The position numbers and the translations under genes are program-made. Shown one piece after another: positions 7,875-62,132 of a stretch of DNA of 64,000 bases. The DNA comes from an uncultured Pseudomonadota bacterium (GTDB lineage Bacteria > Myxococcota_A > Polyangia > Fen-1088). The DNA is taken from assembly GCA_963847705.1 (NCBI GenBank), contig CAWKBC010000010.1:133890-197889 (forward strand). The letters run 5' to 3'. The notes under the pieces were generated by a model. The model saw nothing but the letters and a program-made list of their open reading frames with translations, did not search any database and was not told the origin of the DNA. Position 1 is the stretch's first letter; each line of letters begins with the position of its first letter.

Positions 7875-7879
7875 AACCG

Positions 7880-30596: not shown

Positions 30597-31604
30597 ATGA
30601 AAGCGATCGCCTACACGACCAGCGGCTTGCCGATCGAGGATCCCGCTTCCCTGATCGACATCGACCTTCCGACACCGAGCCCGGGGCCCCGCGATCTTCT
30701 GGTGGCGGTGAAGGCCGTCTCCGTCAATCCGGTCGACACCAAGGTCCGCCGCGGCACCGCGGTGACCGCGCCGCGCGTCCTCGGCTGGGACGCCGCCGGC
30801 GTGGTGAACGCCGTCGGTCCCGAGGTGACGCTGTTCAAGGTCGGCGATCCGGTCTTCTACGCCGGCTCGATCGCTCGCCCGGGCAGCAACAGCGAGCTCC
30901 ACCTGGTGGATGAACGAATCGTCGGCCACAAGCCCGCCTCACTCGGATTCGGCGAGGCCGCCGCGCTTCCGTTGACGTCGATCACCGCCTGGGAGCTGCT
31001 CTTCGATCGGCTCGGCGTCGCCGAGAACGGCGGCGCCGGCGCGAGCCTCCTGATCGTCGGCGCCGGCGGAGGCGTCGGTTCGATGCTGACCCAGCTCGCG
31101 CGCAGGCTGACGCGGCTCACGGTGATAGGCACTGCCTCGCGCCCGGAGACGCGCCAATGGGTCACCGACCTCGGCGCCCATCAGGTCGTCGACCACACGC
31201 GGCCTCTCGCCGCCGAGCTGGCGCGCATCGGCCTCGGCGCCGTCGCGTACGTCGCCAGCCTCACCCACACCGAGAAGCACTACGATCAGCTGATCGAGGC
31301 GCTGGCCCCGCAGGGGAGCCTGGGCCTGATCGACGATCCCAGGCAGCTGGATGCGGTCCCCCTGAAGCGCAAGTCTCTGTCGCTGCACTGGGAGCTGATG
31401 TTCACCCGCTCACTGTTCCAGACCCCCGACATGCTCCGCCAACACGAGATTCTGGATCGCCTCTCCGCGCTCATCGACGAGGGCGTCCTCAAGACGACGC
31501 TCGGCGAGCATTTCGGTCAGATCAACGCCGGCAACCTGTGCCGCGCCCACGCCCTGGTCGAAAGCGGCAAGGCGCGGGGGAAGATCGTGCTCGAGGGTTT
31601 TTGA
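30597..31604 (+). CDS. zinc-binding alcohol dehydrogenase family / NADPH:quinone oxidoreductase
   Basis: AVSVNPVDTK, LGWDAAG, ALPLTSITAWELLFDRL, GAGGGVGS, HWELMFTRS. Confidence 0.92.
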   Translation: MKAIAYTTSGLPIEDPASLIDIDLPTPSPGPRDLLVAVKAVSVNPVDTKVRRGTAVTAPRVLGWDAAGVVNAVGPEVTLFKVGDPVFYAGSIARPGSNSELHLVDERIVGHKPASLGFGEAAALPLTSITAWELLFDRLGVAENGGAGASLLIVGAGGGVGSMLTQLARRLTRLTVIGTASRPETRQWVTDLGAHQVVDHTRPLAAELARIGLGAVAYVASLTHTEKHYDQLIEALAPQGSLGLIDDPRQLDAVPLKRKSLSLHWELMFTRSLFQTPDMLRQHEILDRLSALIDEGVLKTTLGEHFGQINAGNLCRAHALVESGKARGKIVLEGF

Positions 31605-31647
31605 CCGCGACGTCCGGGGAACGATCGAACGGGCGGAGGCGCCGCCC

Positions 31648-32016
31648 TCAGCTCGCGCAGGGGCAGCAATAAAAGAGCACGTCGCTCGGCGTGGGGACTG
31701 GAATGACCGTGCACCCGAGCGTGGCGTCGGGCGCGGGGATCGCGCCAACGGCGCTGGAGCCGGTGCAGGTCATCGAGTAGTCCGACGCCGCGCAAGCGGG
31801 CTTGCAGCTCGTGCTGGTGGTGCAGATCTGAAACGACGAGCGGAAGCAACCCGCGACCGCGGCATCCGGGGCCTCCGAAACGCCCGCCGGAGACTGACAG
31901 GAGAGACTGCCGACCTGCGAGCCGGTGCCCAGCCGATCGCCATCACAGCCCAACGAGAGCCCGAGCGCGGACGAGAGTGCGAGAAGGATGACGGCACCGA
32001 TCGAAGCAGAGCGCAT
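31648..32016 (-). CDS. small Cys-rich secreted/lipoprotein
   Basis: Signal MRSASIGAVILLALSSALGLSLGC; many Cys, ends YCCPCAS. Confidence 0.65.
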   Translation of the reverse strand: MRSASIGAVILLALSSALGLSLGCDGDRLGTGSQVGSLSCQSPAGVSEAPDAAVAGCFRSSFQICTTSTSCKPACAASDYSMTCTGSSAVGAIPAPDATLGCTVIPVPTPSDVLFYCCPCAS

Positions 32017-32212
32017 TGCCCCAAACCTTACACATTCCGGGCCAACCCGTTGAGACGCTTCGGCCGCGGCCGAGGCGGTGCCCTCGGCGCCCCTCACCCT
32101 TCGAATGAGCGTCGCCAGTCCGCCGTCGCCTCTCAGGATTTTGAGGGTTGGCCGATCGAGGCGTCACGGATTTCCATCCGCTTCTACGCCATGGGCCCCT
32201 CGACTCCCGCCG

Positions 32213-32241
32213 TTGACACCCAGGATGGCGGCCCGTATTGT
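32213..32241 (+). promoter_or_regulatory. near-consensus sigma70 promoter for the MotA/MotB-like operon
   Basis: TTGACA-17 nt-TATTGT; implies the first gene starts downstream (GTG 32305), not at 32050. Confidence 0.6.
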
Positions 32242-32304
32242 CGCCGGCCCATTCGACGGCACGCGCTACGAAATCTGCTGGAGGCCGCGCGGGACCTGCC
32301 GCTC

Positions 32305-32862
32305 GTGACGGCGACCGAGCCGCTTCCCCCCAAAGGCGCTGACGAGCCCGGCGGGGTCACCGGCGGCGTGGCCTCGTTCGCTGCAGAGAGGGCGCGCGCC
32401 CTGGTCGCCGAGCCGGCGTCGGCCACAGAACCGGCGTCGCCCGGGGAGCCAACACGCGTGGAGCGGGACGATCTGCGCCCGGCGATCGCGGCGCTGCTCG
32501 AGCGGCTCGCGGCCCGGACCGAGCCGGCGCTGATCGCCTGCCTGCGGCGATCGCGCGAGGAGTGGGACCAGGCGGACTCTCTCACCGTCATCGACGCCGA
32601 CCTGGCGGACGAGATCGCGGCGCTGCGGCGGCGCCTCGCGGGGGGCGGCGAGCGCCTGGCCTCCAGGGCGCGGCGGGCGATCGCGCTCGAGGGCCTCCTC
32701 GCCGTCGACGCTTCGGTCGCGCTGGTGCGGCTGTTCGAGCGGCGCCTCGCCTCGTTGCTGCGTTTGCGGCTGCGCTCGGCCACCCCCGACCTTCTCCCCG
32801 AGGGGCGCCCCTTCCTGGATCTCGGGCGCGCCTTGCACGAGGTCGCGGGGGCGTGGCGATGA
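32305..32862 (+). CDS. hypothetical helical protein, first gene of Zorya-like operon
   Basis: In frame with ORF 32050..32862; stop overlaps the next start (ATGA); no motif firmly recognised. Confidence 0.6.
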   Translation: MTATEPLPPKGADEPGGVTGGVASFAAERARALVAEPASATEPASPGEPTRVERDDLRPAIAALLERLAARTEPALIACLRRSREEWDQADSLTVIDADLADEIAALRRRLAGGGERLASRARRAIALEGLLAVDASVALVRLFERRLASLLRLRLRSATPDLLPEGRPFLDLGRALHEVAGAWR

Positions 32863-34328
32863 CCCGCGCGCGCTGGTTCACCGGCGCGCTCATCGGCGCG
32901 GCCGCGATGATCGTCGCCAGCGAAGCCCTCGCGACCTACGTCGCGGAGCGGCTGGTCGTGGGGATCGTCGCGGTGGTCGTTCTCATGGGCGTGCTGGCGA
33001 TCGGCCTCGCCAGCCTGGCGCGCGCGCGGCGATACATCGCGCGCGAGCTCTCGGCGCTCCGCGCGGAGACGCCCTCGGGTGCCCTCTACGGGGCGCGCCG
33101 CGCGCATCTGGTGGCGCTGCGCCGCCGTGGAGTCGAACCCGATCTGGATGTCCTCGCCGACGCGACGGCCGCCGACGAGGCGGAGCGCGGGTACACCGGG
33201 CGATACCTGGTGGCGACGACCGTGCTCATCGGGCTGGTCGGCACCTTCGGCGGGCTGATGGAGACGCTCGGGCGCCTGGCGCCCTTGCTCAAGGGCGACC
33301 TGCCGTCGAGCTCCGACGGGCCGGCAGGCGCGTTCGCGCTCATCGCTGGGCCGCTCGCCGGGCTGCACGTCACGTTCGGGACCAGCGTCGTCGCCATCCT
33401 GGTGACGCTGGCGCTGGCGTTGATCCAGGGCGACGTCACCCTGCACCATGAGCGGCTGCTCGCGCTCTTGCACGAACGAACGCGCCACGTGCTCGTCCCC
33501 GAGCTGTGGCCGGCCGACGCCAGCGCGGCGGAGCGCACGGTGCGCGCGCTGCGCGAGCTTCAGGCCTTCGTCGCAGAGTCCTTGACCGCGAGCTCATCGG
33601 CGAGCGCCGAGAGGATCGCCGGCGTCGTGCGCCTGGAGGTGCAGCGACTCGTCGCGCAGATCGGGAGCGAGATGAAGGCGGCGGCCGCCGACCAGACGGC
33701 GGCACTGGAACGCACGGGCACCAACCTGACGGACGAGCTCCGGCGGACGACGGAGGCGGCGGGGCAGTCGCTCCGCGACGCCGCGACCACCTCGCGCGAC
33801 ACGATGACGGCGGCGGCCACGGTCGCAGGCGAGGCGATCGGGGCGGCGGCGAAGGCCTCTCGCGAATCGGTCGACCTGGCCGCGACGGCCTCCCGCCAGG
33901 CCTTCGAATCGGCAGCCGCGGCGACGCGCCAGGAGATGGCGGCGGCCATCGCGGCGCTCGCCTCCACGACGGCGCGGACCTCGGAGTCCATCGCGACCTC
34001 GACGGGGGCGGCGGTCGCGTCGCTCGGCGAGCTGCGTGGCAGCCTGAGCACGCAGCTCGAGGGCTCATCGCGGGCGCTCGCCACCGCCGCCGCCGACCTT
34101 CGGGGCACGGCCGGCGTTCTGTCGACCACGCTCGCAGATCTCGCGCCGCAGCTGGGCGCGCTGGGCGCCGAGATCGCGCTCTTGGCGGCGCGCGCTGACA
34201 GCCCCGAGCCGTCGAACGCCGTGCTCGACGAGCTCGTCCACCTCGGCGAGGATGTCGAGCGCCTCCTGGCGTCGAGCCAGCGGGCCGCCGCCGCGACCGA
34301 GGTCGCGACGCACGAGGCCGAGTCGTGA
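32859..34328 (+). CDS. MotA/TolQ/ExbB-family proton-channel protein with long Ala-rich helical tail (ZorA-like)
   Basis: TM motifs LIGLVGTFGGL and TFGTSVVA; ~280-aa amphipathic helical C-terminal tail. Confidence 0.78.
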   Translation: MTRARWFTGALIGAAAMIVASEALATYVAERLVVGIVAVVVLMGVLAIGLASLARARRYIARELSALRAETPSGALYGARRAHLVALRRRGVEPDLDVLADATAADEAERGYTGRYLVATTVLIGLVGTFGGLMETLGRLAPLLKGDLPSSSDGPAGAFALIAGPLAGLHVTFGTSVVAILVTLALALIQGDVTLHHERLLALLHERTRHVLVPELWPADASAAERTVRALRELQAFVAESLTASSSASAERIAGVVRLEVQRLVAQIGSEMKAAAADQTAALERTGTNLTDELRRTTEAAGQSLRDAATTSRDTMTAAATVAGEAIGAAAKASRESVDLAATASRQAFESAAAATRQEMAAAIAALASTTARTSESIATSTGAAVASLGELRGSLSTQLEGSSRALATAAADLRGTAGVLSTTLADLAPQLGALGAEIALLAARADSPEPSNAVLDELVHLGEDVERLLASSQRAAAATEVATHEAES

Positions 34329-34960
34329 GACGCCGCCGCGCGCCCGTCGAGCTCTTTCCCGTCAACGTGTGGCCACCGTTCATCGACGCGGTGGTGTTGA
34401 CGCTGGCGGCATTCGTGCTGCTGACGATCGTGGCCCTGGCGGCCCAGCGGACGTTGCAAAAGCGCGTTCGCGAAGGCGATCGCGCGCTGCAGTCGTTGCG
34501 CGCCGACAAGGAGCGGATCGAGCGCCGCCTGCGCGCGCTCGCCCCCAGCGGCACCATCGAGATCGAAGAGGGCAAGGTCATCCTGCAGGGCGAGGTCCTG
34601 TTCGACTCGGGCTCGGACGCCCTGCGCCCGGAGGGGCGCCTCTTCCTCGAGCGCATGGGGCCGAAGCTCGAGACGCTGCTGGAAGCGGAGCCTGGGCAGA
34701 TGGTGTTCGTGGGGGGCCACACCGACGACCGCGTCCTGCGCGGCAACGCGCCCTTCGCGTCGAACTGGGCTCTGTCTGCGGCGCGCGCCCTGGCGGTGAC
34801 GCGGGTCCTGATCGGGGCCGGCCTCGACGGCCACCGCATCGTGGCGGCCGGCTTCGGCGCCGAGCACCCCCGCGTCGCCAACACCGACGAGGCCGCGCGG
34901 CGCAAGAACCGCCGCATCGAGGTCCTCCTCGTCCCCATGGGCTCGGTGGCGTCGCGGTGA
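34325..34960 (+). CDS. MotB/OmpA-family protein (ZorB-like)
   Basis: WPPFIDAV TM with the conserved Asp; VLFDSGS, GHTD, NWALSAARA, AGFG, NRRIE. Confidence 0.88.
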   Translation: MRRRRAPVELFPVNVWPPFIDAVVLTLAAFVLLTIVALAAQRTLQKRVREGDRALQSLRADKERIERRLRALAPSGTIEIEEGKVILQGEVLFDSGSDALRPEGRLFLERMGPKLETLLEAEPGQMVFVGGHTDDRVLRGNAPFASNWALSAARALAVTRVLIGAGLDGHRIVAAGFGAEHPRVANTDEAARRKNRRIEVLLVPMGSVASR

Positions 34961-35418
34961 CGGCCGACCGCCTCTCGGCGCCGCTGTTGCGATTGGCGTC
35001 GCGCGTGCTCGGCGCGGTGCCGCCGCTCGAGGCGCTCGAGGCGGTGGGCGCGGTGCGGGCGTTCACCGACGGTCCGTCGCCCGCCCGCTACCTGGCGGCG
35101 ACGCGCCTCTTGCGTCACGCCGAGCGGCGCCACAAGCTGGGCGCGCTCGGTCGTCTGGTGGGTCACCGCCGAACGGAGCAGAGCCTCGATCTGCTCGCGC
35201 GCGGCACGGCGCTGGCGCCCGAGCTCCTGCACGCCTTACATGGGTTGCCGCCCGACGCGCGCAACGGCCGCCGTCTCACGTTGATCTCCGAGCTGTTGGC
35301 CGCGCATCGCTTGATCGACGCGCGCACCTCGGGCGCCCTGCTCGAGCTGCGACGGTCCCTCGGTCCCGTGCCGGCTCCGACGGCCGCCGAGCGCCGCCGC
35401 AAGCAACGCGGACGCTGA
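34957..35418 (+). CDS. hypothetical basic helical protein, fourth gene of Zorya-like operon
   Basis: GTG start overlaps the MotB-like stop (GTGA); 153 aa; no family firmly recognised. Confidence 0.6.
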   Translation: MTADRLSAPLLRLASRVLGAVPPLEALEAVGAVRAFTDGPSPARYLAATRLLRHAERRHKLGALGRLVGHRRTEQSLDLLARGTALAPELLHALHGLPPDARNGRRLTLISELLAAHRLIDARTSGALLELRRSLGPVPAPTAAERRRKQRGR

Positions 35419-35426
35419 ACAGCCCA

Positions 35427-36029
35427 ATGGCCGACATGCTCCCCCGCGCAATCACGAAAGAAGCGCTCGCCGCGCTGCCGATCCGGCGCTACGACGGCGA
35501 GGTGAGCCTGGCGGCCACGCCCGAGGAGCTCGAACGGGCAATGGAGGAGATCCGCGCCGAAGGCGTCGCCGGCTTCGACACCGAGACGCGGCCCGCCTTC
35601 AGAAAGGGCGAGAGTTACCTTCCGTCCCTGATCCAGGTGGCCACCGCGCGCAGGGTGCACCTGTTCCCGCTGTCCCGACTCGATTGCTCAGCGGCCGCCG
35701 CCGAGCTGCTGGGCAGCCCGGCCACCGTCAAGGCGGGCATCGGCCTCCAGTACGACCTCGGCCAGTTGAAGCGCCTGTTCCCGTTCGACGCCGCCGCGGT
35801 GGTCGACCTGGGCGAGGTCGCGAAGCGCCACGGCCTCCAGCAGTCGGGCGTGCGCAACCTGGCCGGACTCTTTCTCGGCTTCAGGATTCCCAAGGGCGCC
35901 CAGACATCGAACTGGGCCGCGCCCCGCCTCTCGGAGCAGCAGCTCCGTTACGCCGCCACCGATGCCTGGGCTTGCCGCGAGCTGTACCTGCGCTTCGAAC
36001 AGCTCGGAATGCTGACGGCCAGTCGATAG
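35427..36029 (+). CDS. DEDDy 3'-5' exonuclease (WRN/RNase D-like)
   Basis: ExoI GFDTETRP, ExoII QYDL, ExoIII YAATDA; SNW motif. Confidence 0.9.
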   Translation: MADMLPRAITKEALAALPIRRYDGEVSLAATPEELERAMEEIRAEGVAGFDTETRPAFRKGESYLPSLIQVATARRVHLFPLSRLDCSAAAAELLGSPATVKAGIGLQYDLGQLKRLFPFDAAAVVDLGEVAKRHGLQQSGVRNLAGLFLGFRIPKGAQTSNWAAPRLSEQQLRYAATDAWACRELYLRFEQLGMLTASR

Positions 36030-36062
36030 GTCGCCTGGTCGGCGCGGGCGCTCTCACGCACG

Positions 36063-36626
36063 TCAGCGCCTCGTGTCGTACCTGGTCAGGACCACGCCCC
36101 CGGAAAACGTCCGCGTCTCCACCAGGTTCAGGTTCACCCAGCTGTCCAGCGCGGTGAAGAACGGTGTGCCGCCACCCACCAGGATCGGATGGGTGACGAT
36201 TGCGTACTCGTCGACCAGCCCGGCCCGCATGGCCGCCCCAGCGAGCGTCGCGCCACCGACCCGCATCGGCCCACCGTCCTCGGCTTTGAGCCGGGTGATC
36301 TCGGCGACCGCGTCACCGGCGACCAGGCGGGCGTTCCAGTCAACCTTGTCGATCGTCGAGGAGAACACCACCTTCGGCGTGTCCCGCCAGTTCCGCGCGA
36401 ACGCGATCTGCGCCGGCGTGGCGCCCGGCTGCTGGTCGCCGGTCGGCCAGTAGGAGCTCATGGTCTCCCACAGCTTGCGCCCGTACAGGAGCAGGTCGAT
36501 CGCCAGCTCCTGGTCGAGCCACCACTGGAACAGCTCGTCGCTCGGCCCGCTCCAGCCGAGATCGTCACCGGGCGCGGCGATATAGCCGTCCAGGGTCAGG
36601 TTCATCCCGTAGGTCAGTTTCCGCAT
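36063..36626 (-). CDS. dihydrofolate reductase / RibD C-terminal family protein
   Basis: NLTLDGYIA, LLYGRK, PKVVFSST, VGGATLA, GLVDEY, PILVGGG. Confidence 0.9.
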   Translation of the reverse strand: MRKLTYGMNLTLDGYIAAPGDDLGWSGPSDELFQWWLDQELAIDLLLYGRKLWETMSSYWPTGDQQPGATPAQIAFARNWRDTPKVVFSSTIDKVDWNARLVAGDAVAEITRLKAEDGGPMRVGGATLAGAAMRAGLVDEYAIVTHPILVGGGTPFFTALDSWVNLNLVETRTFSGGVVLTRYDTRR

Positions 36627-36798
36627 GGCGCCATGCCCTTCTGTCGATCGGTCTCGGGAGTCTAGACCCGGCTCAGCGCAGGAGACCGATCAACGCGCGA
36701 TCTGAGTTCGCCGGGTAGTCTTTCGCACTCGGGGCGCAGCGTCGCCTACTCGGCCGACCAGACGCCGACACACGCGGAATTCTCGAATGATTTAGGAG

Positions 36799-36851
36799 TG
36801 CCGGAGACGAGACTTGAACTCGTAAGCCCTTGCGAGCGGCGGATTTTGAGT
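36799..36851 (-). repeat. displaced 3' half of tRNA-Leu(CAA) (att-site direct repeat)
   Basis: Matches 38329..38381 (anticodon loop to discriminator) except in the variable-arm loop (TTGCGA vs GTGAAG on + strand); no CCA. Confidence 0.88.
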
Positions 36852-36916
36852 GCGTTGACGAAATAACGCGTGGGCTCACTTCATAGCTAACCTTCTTTCG
36901 CGCACTGTGCACTGTC

Positions 36917-38035
36917 GTGCATGTGCCCGGGCGTAAGAACAGCTCATCCTCGGCGACGAGCAGGGCGGGCAGGGTCGCACCTCGGCCGGAGACACCGCTG
37001 ATCGACGCGCGTCTCGGCGCGATCCTCCAGGGGCGGTACTCGATCCGAGCTCAGCTCGCGACGGGCGCGATGGGCACGGTGTATCGCGGCGAGCGCCTCG
37101 GCGTCGGGCGGCCGGTCGCGATCAAGTTTCTGAGCCCCGCAGTCGCCGAGCAGTCGGCGTTCTACGATCAGTTCCGCAACGAGCTGCGCGCGCTCAGTCG
37201 CGTCTGCCACCCCAACTGCGTCTCGATAATCGACTTCGGTGTCGAGGGAACTCCGTACGTCGTCATGGAGCTGCTCGGCGGCGTCTCGCTCCGCCAGTTG
37301 CTGAACGGCAAGGTCGGTCGGATCCAACCGCCGCGCGTGCTTCACCTGGCGCGCCAGTTGCTCGCGGGGCTCGCGCACGTTCACATGCAGGGGATCGTCC
37401 ACTGCGACGTCAAACCGGAGAACCTGCTGGTGAGCAATGAGCCCGGCTTCGACGATCACCTGCGCATCGTCGACTTCGGCCTGGCCCGGCTGCACGACGA
37501 CCCGACCGGGTCGGCGGGATTTGCAATCGGCACCCCCAGCTACATGGCGCCCGAGCAGTGCAGCCGCGAGCAGATCACCGATGAACGCACGGACCTCTAT
37601 GCGGTCGGGGTGCTGCTCTTCGAGATGCTCACGGGCTCAAAGCCGTTCACGTCGTCGGAGATTGGCGACATCATCCGCATGCACATCGAAGGCCCGATCC
37701 CGCGTATCCGCGAGCTGGCACCAAGGGCGGGGCTCTCCGAGTCGCTGGAGGCCGTGGTCGCACGAGCGATGGCCAAGGCCCCCGGTGATCGCCATCCCAC
37801 GGCGGCAGCATTCGCCGCGGCGCTCGACGCGACGCCGGAGGGATCGGCGCGCCGCGAGCGCCCGCCCGTCGTCGAGCACCGCGCGCCACCCCCCCGCGCG
37901 CGCTCCGCCGTCCAGCAACGGCGGGCGGGGCCGCTGCCGCTTTGGGCGACGCCGCCGCCGCTGCCCGTCGACGTCACCCGTGCCCGCGCCTTCCTGGGTG
38001 AGTCCGGGGCACCCAAGCGTCATCGACCGATCTGA
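36917..38035 (+). CDS. cytoplasmic Ser/Thr kinase (non-RD)
   Basis: ATGAMGTVY, VAIK, HCDVKPEN, DFG, GTPSYMAPE; no TM seen. Confidence 0.88.
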   Translation: MHVPGRKNSSSSATSRAGRVAPRPETPLIDARLGAILQGRYSIRAQLATGAMGTVYRGERLGVGRPVAIKFLSPAVAEQSAFYDQFRNELRALSRVCHPNCVSIIDFGVEGTPYVVMELLGGVSLRQLLNGKVGRIQPPRVLHLARQLLAGLAHVHMQGIVHCDVKPENLLVSNEPGFDDHLRIVDFGLARLHDDPTGSAGFAIGTPSYMAPEQCSREQITDERTDLYAVGVLLFEMLTGSKPFTSSEIGDIIRMHIEGPIPRIRELAPRAGLSESLEAVVARAMAKAPGDRHPTAAAFAAALDATPEGSARRERPPVVEHRAPPPRARSAVQQRRAGPLPLWATPPPLPVDVTRARAFLGESGAPKRHRPI

Positions 38036-38325: not shown

Positions 38326-38411
38326 TGGTGCCGGAGACGAGACTTGAACTCGTAAGCCCGTGAAGGCGGCGGATTTTGAGTCCGCTGCGTATACCATTTC
38401 GCCACTCCGGC
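38326..38411 (-). tRNA. tRNA-Leu(CAA)
   Basis: 86 nt: acceptor GCCGGAG/CTCCGGC, anticodon arm GCGGA-CTCAAAA-TCCGC, long variable arm, T-loop TTCAAGT, encoded ACCA. Confidence 0.97.
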
Positions 38412-39723: not shown

Positions 39724-39963
39724 GGCGGAGCCGGACTCCGTCCGGCGGAGCCCGTCGCGGGAGGGGGCGGGAACCCTCTCAGGGTTCCCGCGGTTGAACG
39801 ATGGCGCAGCCGGACTCTGTCCGGCGGAGCCCGTCGCGGGAGGGGGCGGGAACCCTCTCAGGGTTCCTGCGGTTGAACGATGGCGCAGCCGGACTCCGTC
39901 CGGCGGAGCCCGTCGCGGGAGGGGGCGGGAACCCTCTCAGGGTTCCCGCGGTTGAACGATGGC
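39724..39963. repeat. three tandem 79-bp double-hairpin (REP-like) units
   Basis: GCCGGACTC recurs at 39730, 39809 and 39888; each unit has GCCGGAC-tcc-GTCCGGC and GCGGGAACCCT-ctc-AGGGTTCCCGC. Confidence 0.95.
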
Positions 39964-47615: not shown

Positions 47616-50130
47616 GTGTCCCGCGAGGATGAGCTTGCCGCCCAGATAGAAGAGACGGAGGCCGAGTTGGCCGCTCTTGGCTATGCACGAGAGCAGACCC
47701 TGGCTCGATTGGCGGCGCTTCGGGCCTCCAGCTCTACATCTGGTGGCGCACCACCGCAGCTCCGGCTCCCGATCGTAAACAGTACTCGCGCTCCACGAAC
47801 CGGGGCCGAGAAGATCCGCCTGTTCCGAACATTGTTCCGCGGTCGTACCGACGTGTTCCCAAAACGGTGGGAGAACGCAAAGAAGGGACGGAGTGGCTAC
47901 GCGCCGGCTTGCGCCAACGAATGGGTGCGGGGCGTCTGTGAGAAACCCAAGGTCAAGTGCGGCGAGTGCCCGCACCAGGCGTTCATCACGGTCGACGACC
48001 GAGTCATCGCCGACCACCTGGGCGGCAAGTACACCGCTGGCGTCTATCCTCTCTTGTCCGACGACACGTGTTGGTTCGTCGCCGTGGACTTCGACAAAGC
48101 GTCCTGGAAGGACGACGTCGGCGCATTCGCGGAGACGTGTCGGGGGCACGCGCTGTCTCCCGCCATCGAGCGGTCGCGATCGGGCAACGGAGCGCACGGC
48201 TGGTTCTTCTTCACGGCACCCGTTCCTGCGCGTGACGCCAGGGACATGGCGTCATTCTTGCTCACCGAGACGATGCGGCTGCGACGAGAGCTGAATCTCG
48301 AATCGTACGATCGTCTCTTCCCCTCGCAGGACACGCTCCCCCAGGGTGGATTCGGGAATCTCATCGCACTGCCGTTCCAGTTTCACCCTCGGAAGGTCGG
48401 GCACAGCCTGTTCGTCGATGACCGGTTCGAGGCGCTTCCATGGGAACAGCAGTGGCAATTCCTCGCTGACATCGAACGAGTCGGGGAGGATCGCGTTCGT
48501 ACCCTTGCGAGAGAGGCGGTGCGCACGGCGCGCGTGCTCGCAGTTCCGGCGATCCCCGACGCGGAGGACGAAGACGACGAGCCCTGGAAGCCGGCGAAAT
48601 CCTCAAGCGGCGACGACGAAGCTCCCATTCCTGGTGCCGCCGGAGGTCAAGGCGGTTCTCGCCCAACGACTCTTCATAGACAAACAAGAGCTACCGTCCC
48701 CGCTGGTGTCGCGCCTCCGACGGCTTGCGGCGTTCCAGAATCCCGAGTTCTACAAGCGTCAGAAGCTCCGACTTTCGACGGCGCGAACTCCCCGCATCGT
48801 CGTCTGCGCCGAGGATCTGCCCAAACACCTCGCACTCCCGCGCGCCTGCACTGGCGACGTTCGGAGGCTTCTCGAAGACAACGGCTCGCGTCTCACGTGC
48901 GACGACCAGCGCAATCGCGGACGGCATGTCGCTCTGTCATTCCAGGGCACCCTAACGCCCGAGCAGCAGGACGCGGTTCAGGGGATGCTGCCGCACGACC
49001 TGGGCGTGCTCGTGGCGCCGCCGGGTGCAGGAAAGACGGTGATGGGCGCCTACTTGGTCGCGGCGCGCGGGGTCAATACTCTCGTCCTGGTTCACCGTCG
49101 TCCGCTGCTCGAGCAGTGGGTCAACCAGCTCGCCCTCTTTCTGGGCGTCGATCCTGCCGAGGTCGGGCGGATCGGCGGTGGCAAATCGCGACCGACCGGG
49201 ATGCTGGACGTCGCGATGATTCAGAGCCTCGTCCGCGACGGGCAGGTGAGCGAAGCCGTCGGCGACTACGGCCAGGTCATCGTCGACGAATGCCATCACG
49301 TGCCCGCCGTGTCGTTCGAGCGTGTCCTGGCGTCCGCCCGAGCGCAATACATCGTCGGGTTGACCGCCACGCCCCGACGGCGAGACGGGCACCATCCCAT
49401 CGGCGCGATGCAGCTCGGGCCGGTGCGGCACGTCATCAGCGGCAAAGCGCAGGCGGCGGCGCGCCCCTTCGAGCACAAGTTGATCGTCCGGGAGACGGAG
49501 CTGGCCGTCGCTGAGGAGAATCCGGCGATCCACACGATCTATCGGACCGTCGCCGGGGACCGCGCGCGTGGAGAGCTCATCGCCCGCGACGTGGGGCTGG
49601 CACTCGACGAGGGCCGATGCCCGATCGTGTTGACCGAACGAAAGGACCATCTGGAGCTTCTCGCTGACTTGATCGGAGGCGTCTGTCCAAGAGTCGCGGT
49701 CTTGCGTGGCGGGGCGGGATCGGTACGACGTGCGCGATCGGCGACGCAGTCCCTATCTGGCGCTGGCCCTCGCGTCATCGTCGCGACGGGTCGCTACGTG
49801 GGGGAGGGGTTCGACGATCCCGCGCTCGACACGCTGTTCCTGGCGATGCCGATCTCGTGGAAGGGGACCGTGATCCAGTACGCGGGGCGAATCCAGCGCC
49901 TCCACGCAGGGAAGCGTGAAGTCCGAATCTACGATTACGTCGACCGCAACATCCCAATGCTCGATCGCATGTTCCGGCGCCGCCTCGCCGGCTACCGGTC
50001 GATCGGATACGTGGAGGCAGATCTGCCTCCGGGCTACGGAGAGGCGGACGACGACTGGACCCTTGGACGCGGTTGGGCGGACGACCTGGACGAGGATGAC
50101 GCAGGCGAGATGAAGGCCCCGGAGGAGTAA
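47616..50130 (+). pseudogene. TOTE-type archaeo-eukaryotic primase domain + DEAD/DEAH (ResIII-like) helicase, split by a +1 frameshift near 48630
   Basis: Frame 1: FRGRTDVF, YAPACANEW, AVDFD, ERSRSGNGAHGW, GGFGNLIALP. Frame 2: AFQNPEFY, APPGAGKT, DECHH, GLTATP, EGFD, QYAGRIQR. Confidence 0.8.
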
Positions 50131-50134
50131 CCGC

Positions 50135-52069
50135 ATGGAGAACCAACCGGGCCCTGCCCTGATCCGCGTCCTGCGTCCCGAGCTCGCCGACCTCATAGCG
50201 GCTGGAGAGGTCGTCGAGCGGCCTGCTTCTGTGGTCAAGGAGCTCTGCGAGAACGCCATCGACGCCGGCGCCACCAAGATCGAAGTGACCGTCAAAGAGG
50301 GGGGGCGCAGGCTGATCCAGGTGGTGGACAACGGGTCCGGCATGACCGCCGAGGACGCCAGGCTGGCGCTTCGGCGGCATGCCACGTCCAAGCTCACGTC
50401 GGCAGAGCAGCTGTGGGGCATAGCGACGTTGGGGTTCCGTGGCGAGGCGCTCCCCTCCATCGCGGCAGTCTCGAGGCTGTCGCTCACTACCAAGCCCGCC
50501 TCAGCGGCGGCCGGGGTGCAGCTGGATGTAGTCGGCGGTCATGAGAAGGGATTCCAACAGGTAGGCGTGCCGCAAGGGACACGAGTCGAGATCGGCGACC
50601 TCTTCTTCAATACGCCCGCCCGACTGAAGTTCCTGAAGAGCGACATCACGGAGACGGCGAGTGCGACCGAAACCGTGTTGCGCCTGGCCATTGGTCACCC
50701 AGACGTCCACTTTCGATTGATGGTCGACGGTCGACAGGCGTTCGATTTGCCGGTTCACCGGTCACGGGGGGAGCGCGTGCGTGCGGCCCTGGCCCGCCGC
50801 GGTGCTTCGGCGCTGCACGAGGTGCTCGTAGGAGATGGCCCCTACAGGTTCAACCTGTTTCTGGCTCCGCCCGAGGAATCAACCACCTCATCAGGATCCA
50901 CGTTTCTTTTCGTCGGACGCCGCTATGTTCGGGACCGATTCCTGCTTCGGGCAGTGGTCGAAGGCTGCGGAACGGCGCTCGAGAAGGGGCGCTATCCGCT
51001 CGCCGTTCTCTTCCTCGAAGCTCCGCCTGATGAAGTCGACGTCAACGCCCACCCTCAGAAGACGGAGGTGCGGTTCCTAAAGGCGGAGATGGTCGCGGCG
51101 GCCGTGAAGCGAATTGTGGCCGATGCGCTAACAAAGGCGCCTTGGGCTGCGCGGGCGTCACGGTCTCACAGCTCCGTGGGAGCTCTGGTGGGCGAAGGCA
51201 AGGTGAAGCCCACTGCTTTCGGCTCTTCGCGGGCGGCATTGCGCGCCCAAGTCGAAGCCAATCTTTCGCCGCCCAAAACGGGTCCCTCGTATGGGTCAGC
51301 ATCGACGCCAACTGTGGGCGCCGCACCATCCGGCGCGCTCGCCGCTTCTCCCCGACCTCAAGCCGAGCAACGGGCCCTCCCCTTACAAGCCGGCGAAGAG
51401 CCCGCCCGCCCGAGGCCACCCTCGCCTCAGACTGTTCAAATACCGGCTCCCATCCAGCCACCGGCGGTACCGCCTCAGGGTGAGCGAAAGACGCCCTTAC
51501 TAAAGCCAGCTGGGCCGGTTCGCTTGCTCCAATCCTGGGGCGCCTATCTCCTGTGCGTTCTGGACCAAGATCTCTACATCGTGGACCCGCACGCCGCCGC
51601 CGAGGTGGTGACTCGGCGCACCCTACACGCGGAACTCGCGGCAAACGAAGTGGCGACGGTTCCGCTTTTGAACCGGGCTCCTCTCCGATTGGATCCTCAA
51701 CTGAAACTCGTGTTTCGGCACAAGCAGCCCCTCTTGAACATACTGGGCTTCGAATTCGCCGAGACTTCCGGGAAGGTCGTTCTGACTGCTGTCCCGCGTT
51801 GCCTGCAGTTCGTACCGCCGGGGTCACTGGTGGCGGCCGTCCTGCGGGAGGTACTGGCGGCTGCGACCGTTTCCCCGGAGCGTCGGATCAACCTCCTGGT
51901 CGATGTGATGGCGGCGCAACGCCGCGAATATGGCAGCGAGGAGCCTGCTCGCCTCGCTTCCACCCTTACAAAAGAGGATCTGACTGCCACGTGCCGTGGG
52001 GGAACCCGGGTGGCCATGAAGGTGACCCCCGAGGATGTCGCCGCCTCCTTGGCCGCGATCAGTCGATGA
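50135..52069 (+). CDS. mutL: MutL paralogue (intact GHKL ATPase + transducer; divergent C-terminus with degenerate endonuclease motif)
   Basis: IAAGEVVERPASVVKELCENAIDAGA, DNGSGM, RHATSK, LGFRGEALPSIA, VDVNAHPQKTEVRF; DPHAAAEVVTRR replaces DQHAxxExxxxE. Confidence 0.88.
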   Translation: MENQPGPALIRVLRPELADLIAAGEVVERPASVVKELCENAIDAGATKIEVTVKEGGRRLIQVVDNGSGMTAEDARLALRRHATSKLTSAEQLWGIATLGFRGEALPSIAAVSRLSLTTKPASAAAGVQLDVVGGHEKGFQQVGVPQGTRVEIGDLFFNTPARLKFLKSDITETASATETVLRLAIGHPDVHFRLMVDGRQAFDLPVHRSRGERVRAALARRGASALHEVLVGDGPYRFNLFLAPPEESTTSSGSTFLFVGRRYVRDRFLLRAVVEGCGTALEKGRYPLAVLFLEAPPDEVDVNAHPQKTEVRFLKAEMVAAAVKRIVADALTKAPWAARASRSHSSVGALVGEGKVKPTAFGSSRAALRAQVEANLSPPKTGPSYGSASTPTVGAAPSGALAASPRPQAEQRALPLQAGEEPARPRPPSPQTVQIPAPIQPPAVPPQGERKTPLLKPAGPVRLLQSWGAYLLCVLDQDLYIVDPHAAAEVVTRRTLHAELAANEVATVPLLNRAPLRLDPQLKLVFRHKQPLLNILGFEFAETSGKVVLTAVPRCLQFVPPGSLVAAVLREVLAAATVSPERRINLLVDVMAAQRREYGSEEPARLASTLTKEDLTATCRGGTRVAMKVTPEDVAASLAAISR

Positions 52070-52145
52070 CCGTCGATATCTGCGCCGAGGGTGGGACGAG
52101 TAGGTGGAAGACAAAGCGTCGACCAACCGAATCTGGTCTAACCAC

Positions 52146-52245
52146 GCCACATTCAGGTGGCTCACAGGCCGCTCGTGAGCGGCCCCCAATCCCGGCCGCT
52201 TTGAGCGGCCCACACAGCGCCTCCCCCCGGGCTCTACCGGGGGAT
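52146..52245. other. cluster of four hairpins between convergent mutL and res
   Basis: GCCAC-attcag-GTGGC; GGCCGCTC-gt-GAGCGGCC; GGCCGCT-ttg-AGCGGCC; CCCCCGG-gctcta-CCGGGGG. Confidence 0.6.
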
Positions 52246-52315
52246 GCGTTAGACATCTGAAATGTTGGGTGGGCTTGAAATGATCGCCATTCGATTCGAG
52301 TCAGGCGGAGCGCCG

Positions 52316-55300
52316 TCAACCCACGACTTCGAGAAACTCCGCGATCACGCGGATCTCACCGTCCTCCCGGCGCATCCGGATCGGGTTGAACCCAGGGTTG
52401 TCGGGGCGGAGCTCGATATCGGCGGCGCCTCCGTCGGGGCTCGTCGCCGTTACGCGCCAGCGCTTCAGGGTGTAGCTGCCGCCGGTCTCTGGGTCGGTGG
52501 CGTCTCGGAGCTGGACGACGACGCGGCGGCCGTCGAGGGCGGTGGCGGCGGGGGGGACCCCTTCGGGGAAGAGGCGGAAAAGGGCCCAGCTTCCGTCGGG
52601 GATAGCGGTTTCCATCGAACGGCCGACGACCTTGGCCACGAACATTCGCCGGTCGAGGATGCGCTGGGCGTGGACCTTGGCCCAGCCGATGATCTCCGGG
52701 GCCTGGGAAGGGCTGAACGCGCCGGCGGCGGCGGCAAGGTCGTGGACCGGGACGGCCTCGCGGAACTGCTGGTCGGGCGGCACGCTTTTCACGATGTCCA
52801 GCTTTGACCGATCGCGCTTGAGCGAATCCATCTCGGGGAGCAGCGGCAGCGTTTCAAGGTGTCGCAGCAGGTCGCCGATCTCCTTGCGCGACTGCCGGCC
52901 CCACCACTTGATGTCCTCGCGGCCGATCGGCTCGTTCTCCAGCAGGAGGAGGTAGTGCCACGGCTCGCGGTCGTGTTCGGTCAGCAACTCGCAGTAGCGC
53001 TGGCCCCGGGCGGCCTTTGTGCGGTCGCGGTCGTCGAATCGCCCCTTCACCTCGATGATGAAGTTGTGGAATACCTCGCCAATGCGCGCCCGCGCGATGA
53101 AGTCGGGGTAATAATGCGAAACCAGGCCCTGCCAGTCGTACTCGATGAAGTAGCCGACACCGCTACGGTGGTTGTAGACCCAGCCGGTGACGTCCTTGGC
53201 GGCGTCCAGCAACCGCGCCACGGCCTCCTCGTCGGCGTTCTCCAGCGCGGCGCGCTCGAAGCAGCTCTTTGTGGGTGCGTCGAAGACGTGTTTCTTCAGG
53301 GCCTGGTACCCCTCCAACTCTTCGGCGTGGCGCTCTGACATCTGCGCCTCGGACGCCCGCCGCTCGGCGATGATCGCCTCCTGCAGCGGCTGGAGCAGGG
53401 CTTTCTTGACCGCGCCAACGACGTCGGCGCGCGCCAGGTTGCCCAGGGCGATCCGCGCGTAGGCGCCCTCTGGGATCCGGTCGAAGTACAGCGGCAAGCC
53501 CTTCGGCACGGAGAACGTCTTCCGCTCCAGGAACTCCCGGACGATGCCCTTGACCGCGGTCTTGTGGTGAAAGCTGGCCCGCATCTCCCGCAGAATCGGG
53601 ACCGCGATCGCCACCTCGATCACGTGGTCGAAGTCCCGGTACGACGGCATCTCGGGGACCACGAACGACTGGCCTTCGGTCTCTGCCAACGCGAGCGCTT
53701 CTTTCAGGTACGTCTTGATCTCGGTATCGGCGATCTCCTCCATCCATGCCAAACGGGGCATCAACGCCGGGATGCTGGCGGTGTCGAACGACTTTCGCCA
53801 GTCCGGCACGACTTCGCGCAGTCCCTCGAAACGCACCAACCGCACGCCATGCGCCTGACGTTCCCTCAGGTCGGCCTTCTGCAGAATCGGTACGTACTCG
53901 CGCGCGTGCTCGATCTCGTCGGAAGAGCGTTCCTCGATGATGTCCTGGATCTGATCGAGGATCGCCTTGAACGAAGGATGCTCGATGACGTACAGCTCCT
54001 CCGTCTTCATGAAGGCAGCGCCTTCCTCGTCGAGGATCGGCGGGTGCATCTTGCGCAGACCGCGGCCGAGGGTCTGTTCCGTCAGGGTGCGTGAATCGCA
54101 CGGGCGCAACGGGACGATGACCTTGACGTTGCGGACGTCCCAGCCCTCTTTCAGCATCATGACGCTGACGACGACGTTGTAGGGGTTGGGCTCCATGACC
54201 GGGCGCCCATCGGCGTCGAGCATGGGCCTGCCGTCCTCGTCCACCTTCGGGATCTCATCGTGGTCCACGGCGTTCACCGCCCGCCGGACGCCCTCCCACG
54301 CCTCATCGTTGCGTTGCTCCTTCTCGCCGATGTGAATCTCGACGATGGTGGATCGGGGGACGCCGCCCTCACGATCGACGAATAGAGGCGCATCCTCTAC
54401 CTTTCCGCGATAGCCGGTGACGGCACGCCCGTCGAGTTCGTCGCGTGTGGCCTCGCCATAGCGCAAGAAGTTGGCGACCTCGCGCGCCTCATTCCGGTCG
54501 TTGGCCAAGATGAAGAGGATTGGCTTCCGCTTGTCGCCCTCGTCGGCGAGCTGCTCCTTCACTTTCTTCCAGCGCTCGATGCCGGTGACCAGCAGGTTGC
54601 GATACTTCTCCCAGGCGTTGGGTTGCCCCTCGCGGACCGGCGCCTCGATGTCCCCGGTCTTCTGGTTCCTCACCTCCACCCTCTCCAGCACCGGTCGCTT
54701 GACGATGCCGTCGCGGATGGCGTCCGCCAGCGGGTAATAGACCGTCGTGTGCCTGAAGAGATCCGCCGGCCGAAACTGCTTGTCCGCCTTGGCGCCGCCC
54801 TTGGACGACTTCGAAGCCTTTGCAGTCGAGCCGGTCTCCTCGAACAGGGTGGCCGATAGATCGACCTGCAACGCCACGCGCCCCGTCGCTTCGCCGTCAC
54901 CGTTCAGGCGCCGGATCGATCGGATCCAGGCCATGGCCGTGGCCTCGTCGTCGGTCTGGCTGACGCGCGCCTTGTCGCGGGCCTTCTGCTCGAACTGCGC
55001 GTGCCGGGTCTCGTCCCACACGTGGTGGGCCTCGTCGTTCAGGACCAACAGCCCACGCGATTGAGCGAATCGGTCCAGCAGCGGTGTCGATACGGCCTCC
55101 AGACGGTCGGGCTCGCCCACATGGAACAGGAGATCGATCTGCTGCTGCTCCCACTGCCCCAGCGTCGGTGCGTCCTCGCTCTCGCGCAGAAGCTGGTGAT
55201 AGTTCGTGACCACCAGCGCACCCTGGGAGGGATCCAGCACGCGCGGGCAAGTGGTGGGGTCGTAGACCTTGAGGTTCCACATCTGGTCGAACGCGGGGGG

Positions 55301-55924
55301 CACCACGGGATCGCCCAGGAACACCGAGGTCCCGCCATAAGGCGGGCAGAAATCCTGAAGCAACCGATCCTTCACGAACAGGTTCGGCGCGATCAGGATC
55401 GCGTGCGGACCGAAACCGAGCGGACTCTCCGCTTCGTTGATCGCGTTCAGGTAAGACCACGCGATGAGCAGGCTCATCATCTTGGTCTTGCCCGAGCCCG
55501 TCGCCAGTTGGCCGCCCAGCTTCGCCCACGGATCGCGCTGGGGACCCAGCGGATCCACGCCGGCCAGCTGGTAGAGATCCTCCGTGCGCCGCAGGCCGCG
55601 AACCTCGTAGAGGTAGATGAACGTCTCGACCAGCCTGCGCTGGTGCGGCCAGTACTTGAAGGTCAGCGTTCCACGCGGTCCTCCCAGCAAGTGCGGCTCA
55701 TGCCTGAACCAGTGCTGGAGGAGGTGCATTGTCGTATCGCTGACGGGGCGATCGCCCTCGGCGCCCGGCTGGTAGCGCGGCGCCTGTTGCGGGTATGCCT
55801 CGGCCGCCCGGCCCAACGTGAAGCCGCGCCAGGCGTCAACGCGACGCTGGATCTCGCCGATGACACGTGCCTGGCCCCGCAGATCGCCGAGGTCGGGTGA
55901 TCGATCGAAGGGGCCGGCCATCAC
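52316..55924 (-). CDS. res: type III restriction Res subunit (SF2 helicase + PD-(D/E)xK nuclease) with C-terminal S24/LexA-like peptidase domain
   Basis: LATGSGKT, NDEAHH, LSAT, MLKEGWDVRNV, QTLGRGLR; YPDF...IIEVKG; S24: LAAAAG, GRSME, YTLKR, LRPDNP. Confidence 0.88.
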   Translation of the reverse strand: MMAGPFDRSPDLGDLRGQARVIGEIQRRVDAWRGFTLGRAAEAYPQQAPRYQPGAEGDRPVSDTTMHLLQHWFRHEPHLLGGPRGTLTFKYWPHQRRLVETFIYLYEVRGLRRTEDLYQLAGVDPLGPQRDPWAKLGGQLATGSGKTKMMSLLIAWSYLNAINEAESPLGFGPHAILIAPNLFVKDRLLQDFCPPYGGTSVFLGDPVVPPAFDQMWNLKVYDPTTCPRVLDPSQGALVVTNYHQLLRESEDAPTLGQWEQQQIDLLFHVGEPDRLEAVSTPLLDRFAQSRGLLVLNDEAHHVWDETRHAQFEQKARDKARVSQTDDEATAMAWIRSIRRLNGDGEATGRVALQVDLSATLFEETGSTAKASKSSKGGAKADKQFRPADLFRHTTVYYPLADAIRDGIVKRPVLERVEVRNQKTGDIEAPVREGQPNAWEKYRNLLVTGIERWKKVKEQLADEGDKRKPILFILANDRNEAREVANFLRYGEATRDELDGRAVTGYRGKVEDAPLFVDREGGVPRSTIVEIHIGEKEQRNDEAWEGVRRAVNAVDHDEIPKVDEDGRPMLDADGRPVMEPNPYNVVVSVMMLKEGWDVRNVKVIVPLRPCDSRTLTEQTLGRGLRKMHPPILDEEGAAFMKTEELYVIEHPSFKAILDQIQDIIEERSSDEIEHAREYVPILQKADLRERQAHGVRLVRFEGLREVVPDWRKSFDTASIPALMPRLAWMEEIADTEIKTYLKEALALAETEGQSFVVPEMPSYRDFDHVIEVAIAVPILREMRASFHHKTAVKGIVREFLERKTFSVPKGLPLYFDRIPEGAYARIALGNLARADVVGAVKKALLQPLQEAIIAERRASEAQMSERHAEELEGYQALKKHVFDAPTKSCFERAALENADEEAVARLLDAAKDVTGWVYNHRSGVGYFIEYDWQGLVSHYYPDFIARARIGEVFHNFIIEVKGRFDDRDRTKAARGQRYCELLTEHDREPWHYLLLLENEPIGREDIKWWGRQSRKEIGDLLRHLETLPLLPEMDSLKRDRSKLDIVKSVPPDQQFREAVPVHDLAAAAGAFSPSQAPEIIGWAKVHAQRILDRRMFVAKVVGRSMETAIPDGSWALFRLFPEGVPPAATALDGRRVVVQLRDATDPETGGSYTLKRWRVTATSPDGGAADIELRPDNPGFNPIRMRREDGEIRVIAEFLEVVG

Positions 55925-57045
55925 TTGTCGTCCGGAGCGCGTGCCGCTAGCTGTTCCTCGATGAAGCGCTGCATCTCCTCTTTCTTCGGCAGCTCCAGCA
56001 GGTACTTGGACACGAACAGGCCGTTATCGATGCCAGCCAGGGCGTATTCCACGAGGGCGTGATCCTTCTGCGTGCAGAGGAGGATGCCCACCGGCGGGTT
56101 GTCGCCCTCGGTCATCATGTTCTTTCGGTACCAGCTCACGTAGGTGTTCAGCTGGCCGATGTTCTCGTGATTGAACGCGGCGGCCTTCAGCTCGACCAGG
56201 ACGTGGCACTTGAGGACTCGATGGTAGAAGACCAGGTCCACGAAGTTGTGGATGTCACCGATCAGGATGCGCTTCTGACGGGCCTCGAAGCAGAAGCCGT
56301 GGCCCAGCTCGATGAGAAATTCTTGCAGCTTGTCGAGGAGCTGATCTTCGAGGTGGGATTCGCTCATGACCTCCTGGGGCTTCAACCCCAGGAACTCGAA
56401 GACGTAGGGGTCGCGAATATTCAGTGCCGTCTGTGCACGCTCGGCGCCCTGCTGAGTCAGGGCCGCCAACTTCCCCTTGTCCTTCGAGAGCCCGGAGCGC
56501 TCGTAGTAGAGGCTGGCGATCTGCCGCTTCAGCTCGCGGACGGACCAATTTCCCCGAATGCACTCCAGCTCATAGAAGGCGCGCTTGGTCTCGTCGTCGC
56601 ATTGCAGCAGCTCGGCGATGTGGGTGAATGAGAGCTTGGTCAAGATTTCGGCAGCGCCGACGCCCAATTGTGGAGTCGGTGACTCCCGAATGTTGGCGTC
56701 GGTTCCTGGGAGGAGCGTCTTCGCCAATTGTGGAGTCAGCGACTCCACGATCTGGGGGTAGGTCAGATAGAACTGCCGGTAGCGGTACAGCTCGCGCCGG
56801 TCGCACCGCGACACTCCCATCCGGGTCAGCGACTCGGAGAGCCGGTCCAGGAGCTTCTCTCCGTACCGCTGGCGGTCGACGCCGCGACGCTCGTACTCTT
56901 CGATGTGCAGGCCGATCAGCCAGTTGCGCAGGGTAAGGCTCGAATTGACCGCTCGGGAAGCCTGCGCCGATAGCTCGGCGTGCGCCTCCCCTATCGCCGT
57001 GACCAGGCGATCAAAAGATAGAGGGGATTTCGCCGGTGTCGTCAT
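55921..57045 (-). CDS. yhcG: YhcG/DUF1016 PD-(D/E)xK nuclease family protein
   Basis: RNWLIG, LSFTH, NWSVRELKRQI, RDPYVFEFL, ELGHGFCFEARQKR, VDLVFYHRVLKCHVLVELK, GQLNTY. Confidence 0.93.
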   Translation of the reverse strand: MTTPAKSPLSFDRLVTAIGEAHAELSAQASRAVNSSLTLRNWLIGLHIEEYERRGVDRQRYGEKLLDRLSESLTRMGVSRCDRRELYRYRQFYLTYPQIVESLTPQLAKTLLPGTDANIRESPTPQLGVGAAEILTKLSFTHIAELLQCDDETKRAFYELECIRGNWSVRELKRQIASLYYERSGLSKDKGKLAALTQQGAERAQTALNIRDPYVFEFLGLKPQEVMSESHLEDQLLDKLQEFLIELGHGFCFEARQKRILIGDIHNFVDLVFYHRVLKCHVLVELKAAAFNHENIGQLNTYVSWYRKNMMTEGDNPPVGILLCTQKDHALVEYALAGIDNGLFVSKYLLELPKKEEMQRFIEEQLAARAPDDK

Positions 57046-59822: not shown

Positions 59823-59941
59823 CTTCGGCGCGGGATGATACACCGCCGGGGCCAGGCCCCCCGAACTCCCCGAGCGGGGGTCGCGGGTTGCTGACCGGGC
59901 ATTTGGCGATACCATGGCGCCGGCGACGGAGGCCGGCCCCT

Positions 59942-60886: not shown

Positions 60887-60923
60887 TCGGTGGGCAGACA
60901 TACCTTTCACCGAGCGCCGCCCC

Positions 60924-62096: not shown

Positions 62097-62132
62097 ATCG
62101 CACCGTGTCGCCACCGCGATCGGCGCAAGGGT

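Follow-up and report, generated by a model that had tools for sequence, protein, structure and literature searches.

Near the centre of the 64,000-nt window analysed here (contig C10 of genome G000), an operon beginning at position 32213 on the + strand encodes a MotA-like subunit (A) and a MotB-like subunit (B) enclosed by two small proteins, orf1 and orf4, with a gene for a 3'-5' exonuclease following on the same strand. The locus raises the question of whether this ion motor belongs to the Zorya anti-phage systems and, if it does, to which type, and which of the surrounding genes form part of it. The closest named relatives of the window are Polyangia/Myxococcales metagenome assemblies. A sequence-only reading had proposed a divergent type III or a new Zorya subtype, possibly with the exonuclease as effector. 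At roughly even odds (a probability of about 0.5), and by analogy with characterized systems, we consider that the four genes would encode a ZorA5B2-type ion motor with two undescribed helpers, working as a type III-like anti-phage Zorya. The cassette is the four-gene operon orf1-A-B-orf4, and the exonuclease is not part of it.

Type III Zorya was taken here as the order DUF3348 protein, ZorA3/DUF802, ZorB3 and DUF2894 protein (PADLOC models PDLC00647-658); the portions of Payne et al. 2021 (PMC8565338) drawn on here report that it protects E. coli and give no known enzyme in it. The naming of the helpers differs among sources, as PADLOC-DB has DUF3348 as ZorG and DUF2894 as ZorF and the text consulted in PMC8565338 and PMC11890865 has them reversed. 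Against PADLOC, subunit B matched ZorB3 with an E value of 1.1e-43 and 147 bits, compared with 63 bits or less for ZorB1 and ZorB2. The description of B as a MotB-like protein with a transmembrane Asp and an OmpA-like peptidoglycan-binding domain was borne out by Asp21, whose W..D motif occurs in 31 of 31 family rows, and by a match to PF00691 at E 5.8e-15. For subunit A, PF01618 gave no match, and the ZorA3 models were matched by 14 of 22 membrane domains of the family, with a best E of 5e-11. The motifs expected in A were present as G128-T129-F-G-G-L and F173-G-T-S176, and a tail of ~270 aa, predicted to be helical and close to the ~280 aa first estimated, extends past W217-P218; the FxTS motif, however, reads FGAS in most relatives. 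T129 does not vary across the family, S176 shows conservation of at least 90%, and in an alignment to ZorA3, not to EcZorA, both fall in Thr/Ser columns of canonical ZorA3. According to the sections of PMC11946911 used here, defence by EcZorAB needs ZorA T147/S184 and ZorB D26. The adjacent A-B pair, the transmembrane Asp with the Thr/Ser residues, the long predicted helical tail and the OmpA domain agree with Zorya of any type; the gene order with its overlaps (helper-A-B-helper, equal to zorGABF), the best matches of B and of the A membrane domain, the long tail, the basic C-terminal tail of the downstream helper and the lack of a recognizable enzyme are shared with type III.

The ends of both motor subunits and their phylogeny set the family apart from canonical type III. 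Tail length runs from 238 to 750 aa, with 0.6-3.2% Pro, among the 21 full-length A proteins parsed of 23, but the terminal 60 residues are conserved in every one of 22 sequences, with the consensus P.L..L..EVALLA.R, a loop, and LDEL.RLGE..ERL. A profile of this tip gave no significant match to 20 canonical ZorA3 proteins (best 4.1 bits), whose tails end in a different motif. The N-terminus of B is basic in all 31 rows of the new family (charge +1 to +4) and acidic in 20 of the 23 from type III (-2 to -6). In a tree of A membrane domains, built with four new-family rows and one near-duplicate canonical row left out, the new family formed one clade (99 by the Shimodaira-Hasegawa-like approximate likelihood ratio test) apart from canonical type III. 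One clade was also recovered in both B trees, with support of 98 in the first, which left out 13 of 65 rows (near-duplicates, one fragment and two unrelated OmpA proteins), and of 98/99 in the second, which kept 32 rows; it lies outside the canonical clade (92/84).

The helpers, too, are set apart from those of type III. Searches of orf1 and orf4 against Pfam, NCBIfam and PADLOC returned nothing significant, and the clear DUF3348 or DUF2894 matches that would mean an ordinary type III locus were absent, with the Zorya helper models, including those of PADLOC at E up to 1, matching 0 of 27 orf1 and 0 of 30 orf4 members. Searched against 1.84 billion representatives, a profile of orf1 recovered 126 clusters that make up a closed family; for 114 clusters the E value was 1e-10 or better. 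The AlphaFold2 model of orf1 (predicted local distance difference test score, pLDDT, of 78.8) is that of an all-helical soluble protein, with a short conserved N-terminal helix, a variable linker, three long helices and a C-terminal helix, and that of orf4 is all-helical with a pLDDT of 90. Neither model matched the PDB in Foldseek at E 0.001 or better; the ESM Atlas gave only leads under 0.8 for orf1 and no usable match for orf4, and VIA-align of orf1 reached a best Z of 8.9, matching spectrin repeats and designed bundles at the level that helical bundles reach in general. No recognizable catalytic motif was found in either protein. All four cassette genes are under purifying selection, with ratios of nonsynonymous to synonymous substitution (simple pairwise counts against three relatives) of 0.14-0.42: 0.28-0.42 for orf1, 0.14-0.21 for B and 0.24-0.36 for orf4.

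These results need to be weighed against the rather unlikely alternative that the locus is ordinary type III, with orf1 a DUF3348 protein and orf4 a DUF2894 protein that diverged and shrank past profile detection. The gene order is the same, both pairs of helpers are predicted or appear to be helical, and their C-termini agree in charge: the last 20 residues carry a net +4 or more in 25 of 30 orf4 and 14 of 19 DUF2894 proteins, and in 0 of 27 orf1 and 0 of 12 DUF3348 proteins. Canonical and new-family ZorB3 were also never found together in any of 301 genomes. A weak alignment of ~106 columns between the orf1 and DUF3348 profiles, obtained in three runs at E 0.014-0.1, may be a real trace of kinship and would then speak against independent helper families; its score of 20.4 was reached by only one of 25 block shuffles, but a reversed unrelated profile scored 20.9. 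This comparison was made by sequence profile only, with a shallow DUF3348 profile of 12-16 rows (the homologue search returned four near-copies), which limits the negative result for this pair. The orf4-DUF2894 score of 14.6 was at shuffle level (reached by six of 25 shuffles), and the GPxN motif of DUF2894 is absent from the orf4 alignment. PF11828 found nothing in G000. The PADLOC helper models still detect the helpers of canonical myxobacterial loci of the same class, and canonical type III is found in the same class and phylum (at locus L080 all four PADLOC models match) as well as in Betaproteobacteria. Ordinary type III is further opposed by the closed orf1 family, by the tail tip and by the differently charged N-terminus of B. 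Other differences from type III are median helper lengths of 184 and 164 aa, compared with 258 and 235 aa, and the ATT start assigned below to orf1 in one family. On sequence grounds the cassette is likely a Zorya variant that resembles type III and has helpers of undescribed families; it would not be type III on either defining helper, and a very remote shared origin of orf1 with DUF3348 is possible. The order of orf1 and orf4 and their shortness relative to the type III layout were as first read, and of the two proposals made for the locus, the divergent type III-like or new Zorya motor found support and the exonuclease effector did not.

Other known motors fit the cassette less closely. With Zorya types I and II, as described in the parts of Hu et al. 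(PMC11946911) and Mariano et al. (PMC11890865) used here, it shares the transmembrane Asp of B, the Thr/Ser pair of A, the OmpA-type domain and the long A tail; it differs in having no helicase, nuclease or HNH partner (ZorC/ZorD or ZorE), in the far lower scores of B on ZorB1/ZorB2 and in the position of type I B rows outside the family in the tree. No PADLOC match to ZorC, ZorD or ZorE was found for orf1, orf4 or 116 flanking proteins; the flank scan took in 40 loci and 116 of 122 called neighbours, omitting four calls that were cassette genes and two short doubtful ones overlapping orf4. Set beside the flagellar MotAB/PomAB and the TolQR/ExbBD/AglRQS ion motors, B resembles the periplasmic domains of MotB/PomB in the PDB (best E 1e-15), whereas A lacks the PF01618 match and has the long tail, and no flagellar, Ton or Tol genes occur in the scanned flanks. 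Genome G000 holds 12 further MotA/ExbB/TolQ-family genes, so the cassette motor is not its only one of this kind. The literature searched, covering parts of PMC8565338, PMC11890865, PMC11946911, bioRxiv 10.64898/2026.01.02.697320, PMC12505986 and PMC9031893, held no description of such a variant nor of a type III mechanism; the supplementary lists of the Zorya papers, which lay outside this search, could hold these loci.

The exonuclease has intact DEDDy residues (D51/E53/D110/Y175/D179), matches PF01612 at E 2e-19 and finds the WRN exonuclease as its best PDB match (E 4e-12), with NrnC and EXD2 weaker. It had been placed 8 nt past orf4, where an ATG does occur at 35427, but this codon is not the common start of five aligned relatives, which is ATG 35436, 17 nt past the stop. 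No + strand terminator was found between orf4 and the exonuclease, and the two are likely on the same transcript in the window genome. Together with the intact active site and the adjacency of exonuclease and cassette in three genomes of one genus (G000, G297 and G644), this closeness is what would favour a five-gene system in which the exonuclease is an effector recruited by the A tail. Its distribution makes that explanation very improbable. The gene lies 3' of orf4 in only one of 29 related loci holding orf4; this query detected it in six of 19 genomes in the genus and nowhere among 12 others of the class, and gave no match in G137, G178 and G245, which belong to the same genus and carry the cassette. 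Conversely, it is kept where cassette B is missing, in G123 (91% complete), G643 (74%) and G086 (89%). In G086 (L125, G086:C130, ~7874-8214) the promoter, the ATT and ~50 orf1 codons are fused in frame to the last orf4 codons and the exonuclease follows, as expected from a deletion of ~3 kb between roughly 32415 and 35384 in window coordinates, although the join may be a misassembly. The exonuclease is a passenger or local neighbour and not a conserved part of the system. It shares with WRN-type and NrnC-type DEDDy exonucleases a stand-alone 200-aa domain, and differs from them in its link to the cassette, which is limited to some genomes of a single genus.

The near-consensus promoter and the three consecutive start/stop overlaps that had been read as joining the four genes were all confirmed, and the promoter was the single site found in a scan of 31000-37500, where shuffled sequences gave a mean of 0.2. 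Supplementary to this, the start of orf1 appears unusual. ATT 32251 lies 9 nt past the -10 box, and in 14 of 14 loci of f1, the family of the window, TTGACA with a 17-18 nt spacer stands upstream of orf1 and the first in-frame candidate codon 8-10 nt past the -10 box is ATT; 12 of these loci were assigned by family code and two via identity and tree, and being related they do not represent 14 independent events. By comparison, ATT accounts for 6.3% of all Ile codons of G000, and for 10 of 193 in the other cassette genes. Of 20 loci in other families, 13 have GTG (8) or ATG (5) at this position, and the remaining seven have no clear promoter or a longer gap. Two other candidate starts were considered: the upstream ATG 32191 was rejected, as it precedes the promoter and in two loci an in-frame stop lies one codon ahead of the ATT; a downstream GTG at codon 19 is disfavoured by codons 2-17, which already look coding, with substitutions mostly at third positions (270 versus 187 and 107 at the other two). 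The most likely start is ATT 32251 on a nearly leaderless mRNA with an inferred transcription start, giving a protein of 203 aa, and AUU initiation a few bases from the 5' end offers the simplest reading of these observations. As non-AUG starts on leaderless mRNA are weak in E. coli, according to the part of PMC9031893 consulted, the ATT start may determine how strongly the entire operon is expressed. If true, it would be an unusual natural case of leaderless AUU initiation.

Table 1. Positions, in window coordinates, of the cassette, the adjacent exonuclease and other features of the window.
Feature	Position	Strand	Remarks
sigma70-type promoter TTGACA-17-TATTGT	32213..32241	+	TTGACA 32213-32218, 17-nt spacer, TATTGT 32236-32241; 10/12 consensus matches; sole promoter-like site found; conserved in relatives
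orf1 (helper 1), 203 aa	32251..32862	+	likely ATT start; predicted all-helical, no known family
orf1/A overlap ATGA	32859-32862	+	4-nt start/stop overlap
A, ZorA-like, 489 aa	32859..34328	+	T129 and S176 predicted ion-filter pair; helical tail of ~270 aa with conserved tip
A/B overlap GTGA	34325-34328	+	4-nt start/stop overlap
B, ZorB-like, 211 aa	34325..34960	+	basic N-terminus, one transmembrane helix with Asp21, short coiled linker, OmpA-type domain
B/orf4 overlap GTGA	34957-34960	+	4-nt start/stop overlap
orf4 (helper 2), 153 aa	34957..35418	+	predicted all-helical, basic, Arg/Lys-rich C-terminal tail; no known family
WRN-exonuclease-like DEDDy 3'-5' exonuclease	35427..36029	+	stand-alone; PF01612; start common to relatives ATG 35436
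Partial tRNA-Leu copy, 54 nt	36798-36851		copy of the tRNA 3' half, 93% identical, 1.5 kb apart from it
Ser/Thr kinase gene	36917-38035		enclosed by the tRNA and its partial copy
tRNA-Leu(CAA)	38326-38411	-	
Tandem repeats	39724-39963		about three copies of a 79-nt unit, 97-99% identical
Lower-GC defence/mobile region	48418-63950		relaxase at contig end

The distribution of the cassette was followed in a class-wide sample of 301 genomes from 32 families. Here A matched at least 44 genomes at E 0.001 or better (a stricter first look), 34 of them of this family and 10 weak, and orf1 and orf4 were found in 34 and 30 genomes, each as a single copy and in five families only. ZorB3 matches at E 1e-30 comprised 31 of the new family, four that score as canonical and three partial ones, at most one per genome. 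Where the contig permits, orf1 lies directly beside A and orf4 comes after B, and in most cases the 4-nt overlaps recur. Within f1, orf1 occurs in 11 of 46 other genomes and was not found in the other 35, and the genes flanking the cassette change between loci except among close kin. One genome (G159, 80% complete; L044, G159:C162, ~6990-9560) retains the promoter and a 21-codon orf1 stub that holds the conserved first helix and overlaps A, followed by A-B, with no orf4 match; this pair may be a helper-less remnant or a minimal form. Patchy presence, changing flanks, the deletion scar of G086 and this remnant fit a dispensable gene set. On plasmids, the 165 records matched by B have the same genus make-up as the 166 matched by a canonical ZorB3, and three annotated plasmid matches are DUF3348-DUF802-OmpA-DUF2894 operons.

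Several observations weigh against reading the cassette as an anti-phage Zorya. On the side of the motor, the window's own A matches the PADLOC ZorA3 model weakly (E 3e-6) and in the tail only, and the A profile found no solved ZorA; the joint grouping of new-family and type III B is unsupported (78/49), with long branches affecting the outgroups, and a non-Zorya OmpA/MotB protein of G000 is as close to new-family B in the tree as type III is. On the side of function, the B tree tracks host family, with the minimum of four changes for five families, which suggests old vertical inheritance and not island traffic. Clear defence genes were found in the flanks of one of 40 loci (L003, with a type IV restriction enzyme and a Fic protein; a raw count, to be read without a random-locus background), other PADLOC matches being generic kinases, ATPases and regulators, and the window's own restriction island begins 16 kb from the cassette. 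Largely vertical inheritance and non-defence flanks somewhat weaken the anti-phage reading.

The same evidence bears on a different explanation, an old, vertically inherited envelope motor that shares ancestry with Zorya and serves as an ion-driven sensor of cell-wall stress or contact. It would suit a single-copy cassette restricted to five of the 32 families, flanks free of clear defence genes in 39 of 40 loci, a tRNA within only three of 47, and the persistence of all four genes in G010, where orf1-A and B-orf4 lie mid-contig on two separate contigs (L048/L114: contigs C122 and C69). We regard it as unlikely, as the search found no cassette in the majority of genomes from the families that carry it and a close relative has lost it by deletion, which marks the cassette as dispensable. 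In addition, three annotated canonical type III loci likewise lie among ordinary genes, and type III with the same layout does defend in the tests described in the consulted part of PMC8565338. For these reasons anti-phage defence was retained as the likeliest function and, summed over the Zorya readings, a probable one.

If the cassette does act as a Zorya, its mechanism would run by analogy with type I (PMC11946911). Phage damage to the envelope would lead B to grip peptidoglycan, proton flow would turn the A pentamer, and the A tail tip would recruit or activate the soluble partners. In the material of Hu et al. (PMC11946911) used here, effector recruitment in type I depends on both the motor Asp and the tip of the tail; as the tip of the cassette differs together with its helpers, it may be a docking site that changed with them. 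The partners would be orf1, a helical adaptor that is possibly a low-level product of its ATT start, and orf4. The latter is basic and would bind nucleic acid, a role that its basic C-terminal tail agrees with but does not show. Given two helpers with no recognizable catalytic motif, the cassette itself would not cut in the final step, which would instead consist of binding and blocking or of recruiting a host enzyme. More tentatively, and with less than even confidence, the cassette could represent a fourth Zorya type that retained its motor and tail but in which unrelated families took the place of both soluble modules and of the docking tail tip, giving an enzyme-free effector pair that is old and vertical in five Polyangia families, with orf1 throttled in one of them by AUU on a nearly leaderless mRNA. 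As it retains the motor but differs in helpers and tail tip, the cassette offers a natural swap experiment on whether the tip selects the effector. Since both helpers escape them, PADLOC-type models would probably rate such loci incomplete.

Further type III-like loci were encountered in the course of these comparisons. Several canonical type III loci of another myxobacterial family (L088, L091, L092, L093, L095, L096 and L099; L082, L083 and L078) have no DUF3348 gene beside A, and three of those genomes (G351, G359 and G363) hold a stand-alone DUF3348 gene elsewhere; downstream, many of these loci have the same conserved ~290-aa gene. Loci L097, L098 and L100 are further diverged type III-like cassettes with a basic B N-terminus and an altered or shortened DUF2894-like gene, and L100 encodes an A of 1189 aa with a His/Pro-rich repeat tail.

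Elsewhere in the window, the tRNA-Leu gene and its partial copy enclose a Ser/Thr kinase gene and resemble an old integration scar; a tRNA-anchored island, the idea prompted by this pair, was rejected on the tRNA count given above for the related loci. A 16-nt tRNA-Leu-like match lies just upstream of the G086 scar. The tandem repeats are found upstream of a 106-aa TPR gene and panD. The lower-GC region contains a helicase fragment, mutL, a type III restriction-like subunit, a YhcG/PDC-S02 nuclease, a DNA methyltransferase and Mrr, and its relaxase carries an LPD7 domain.

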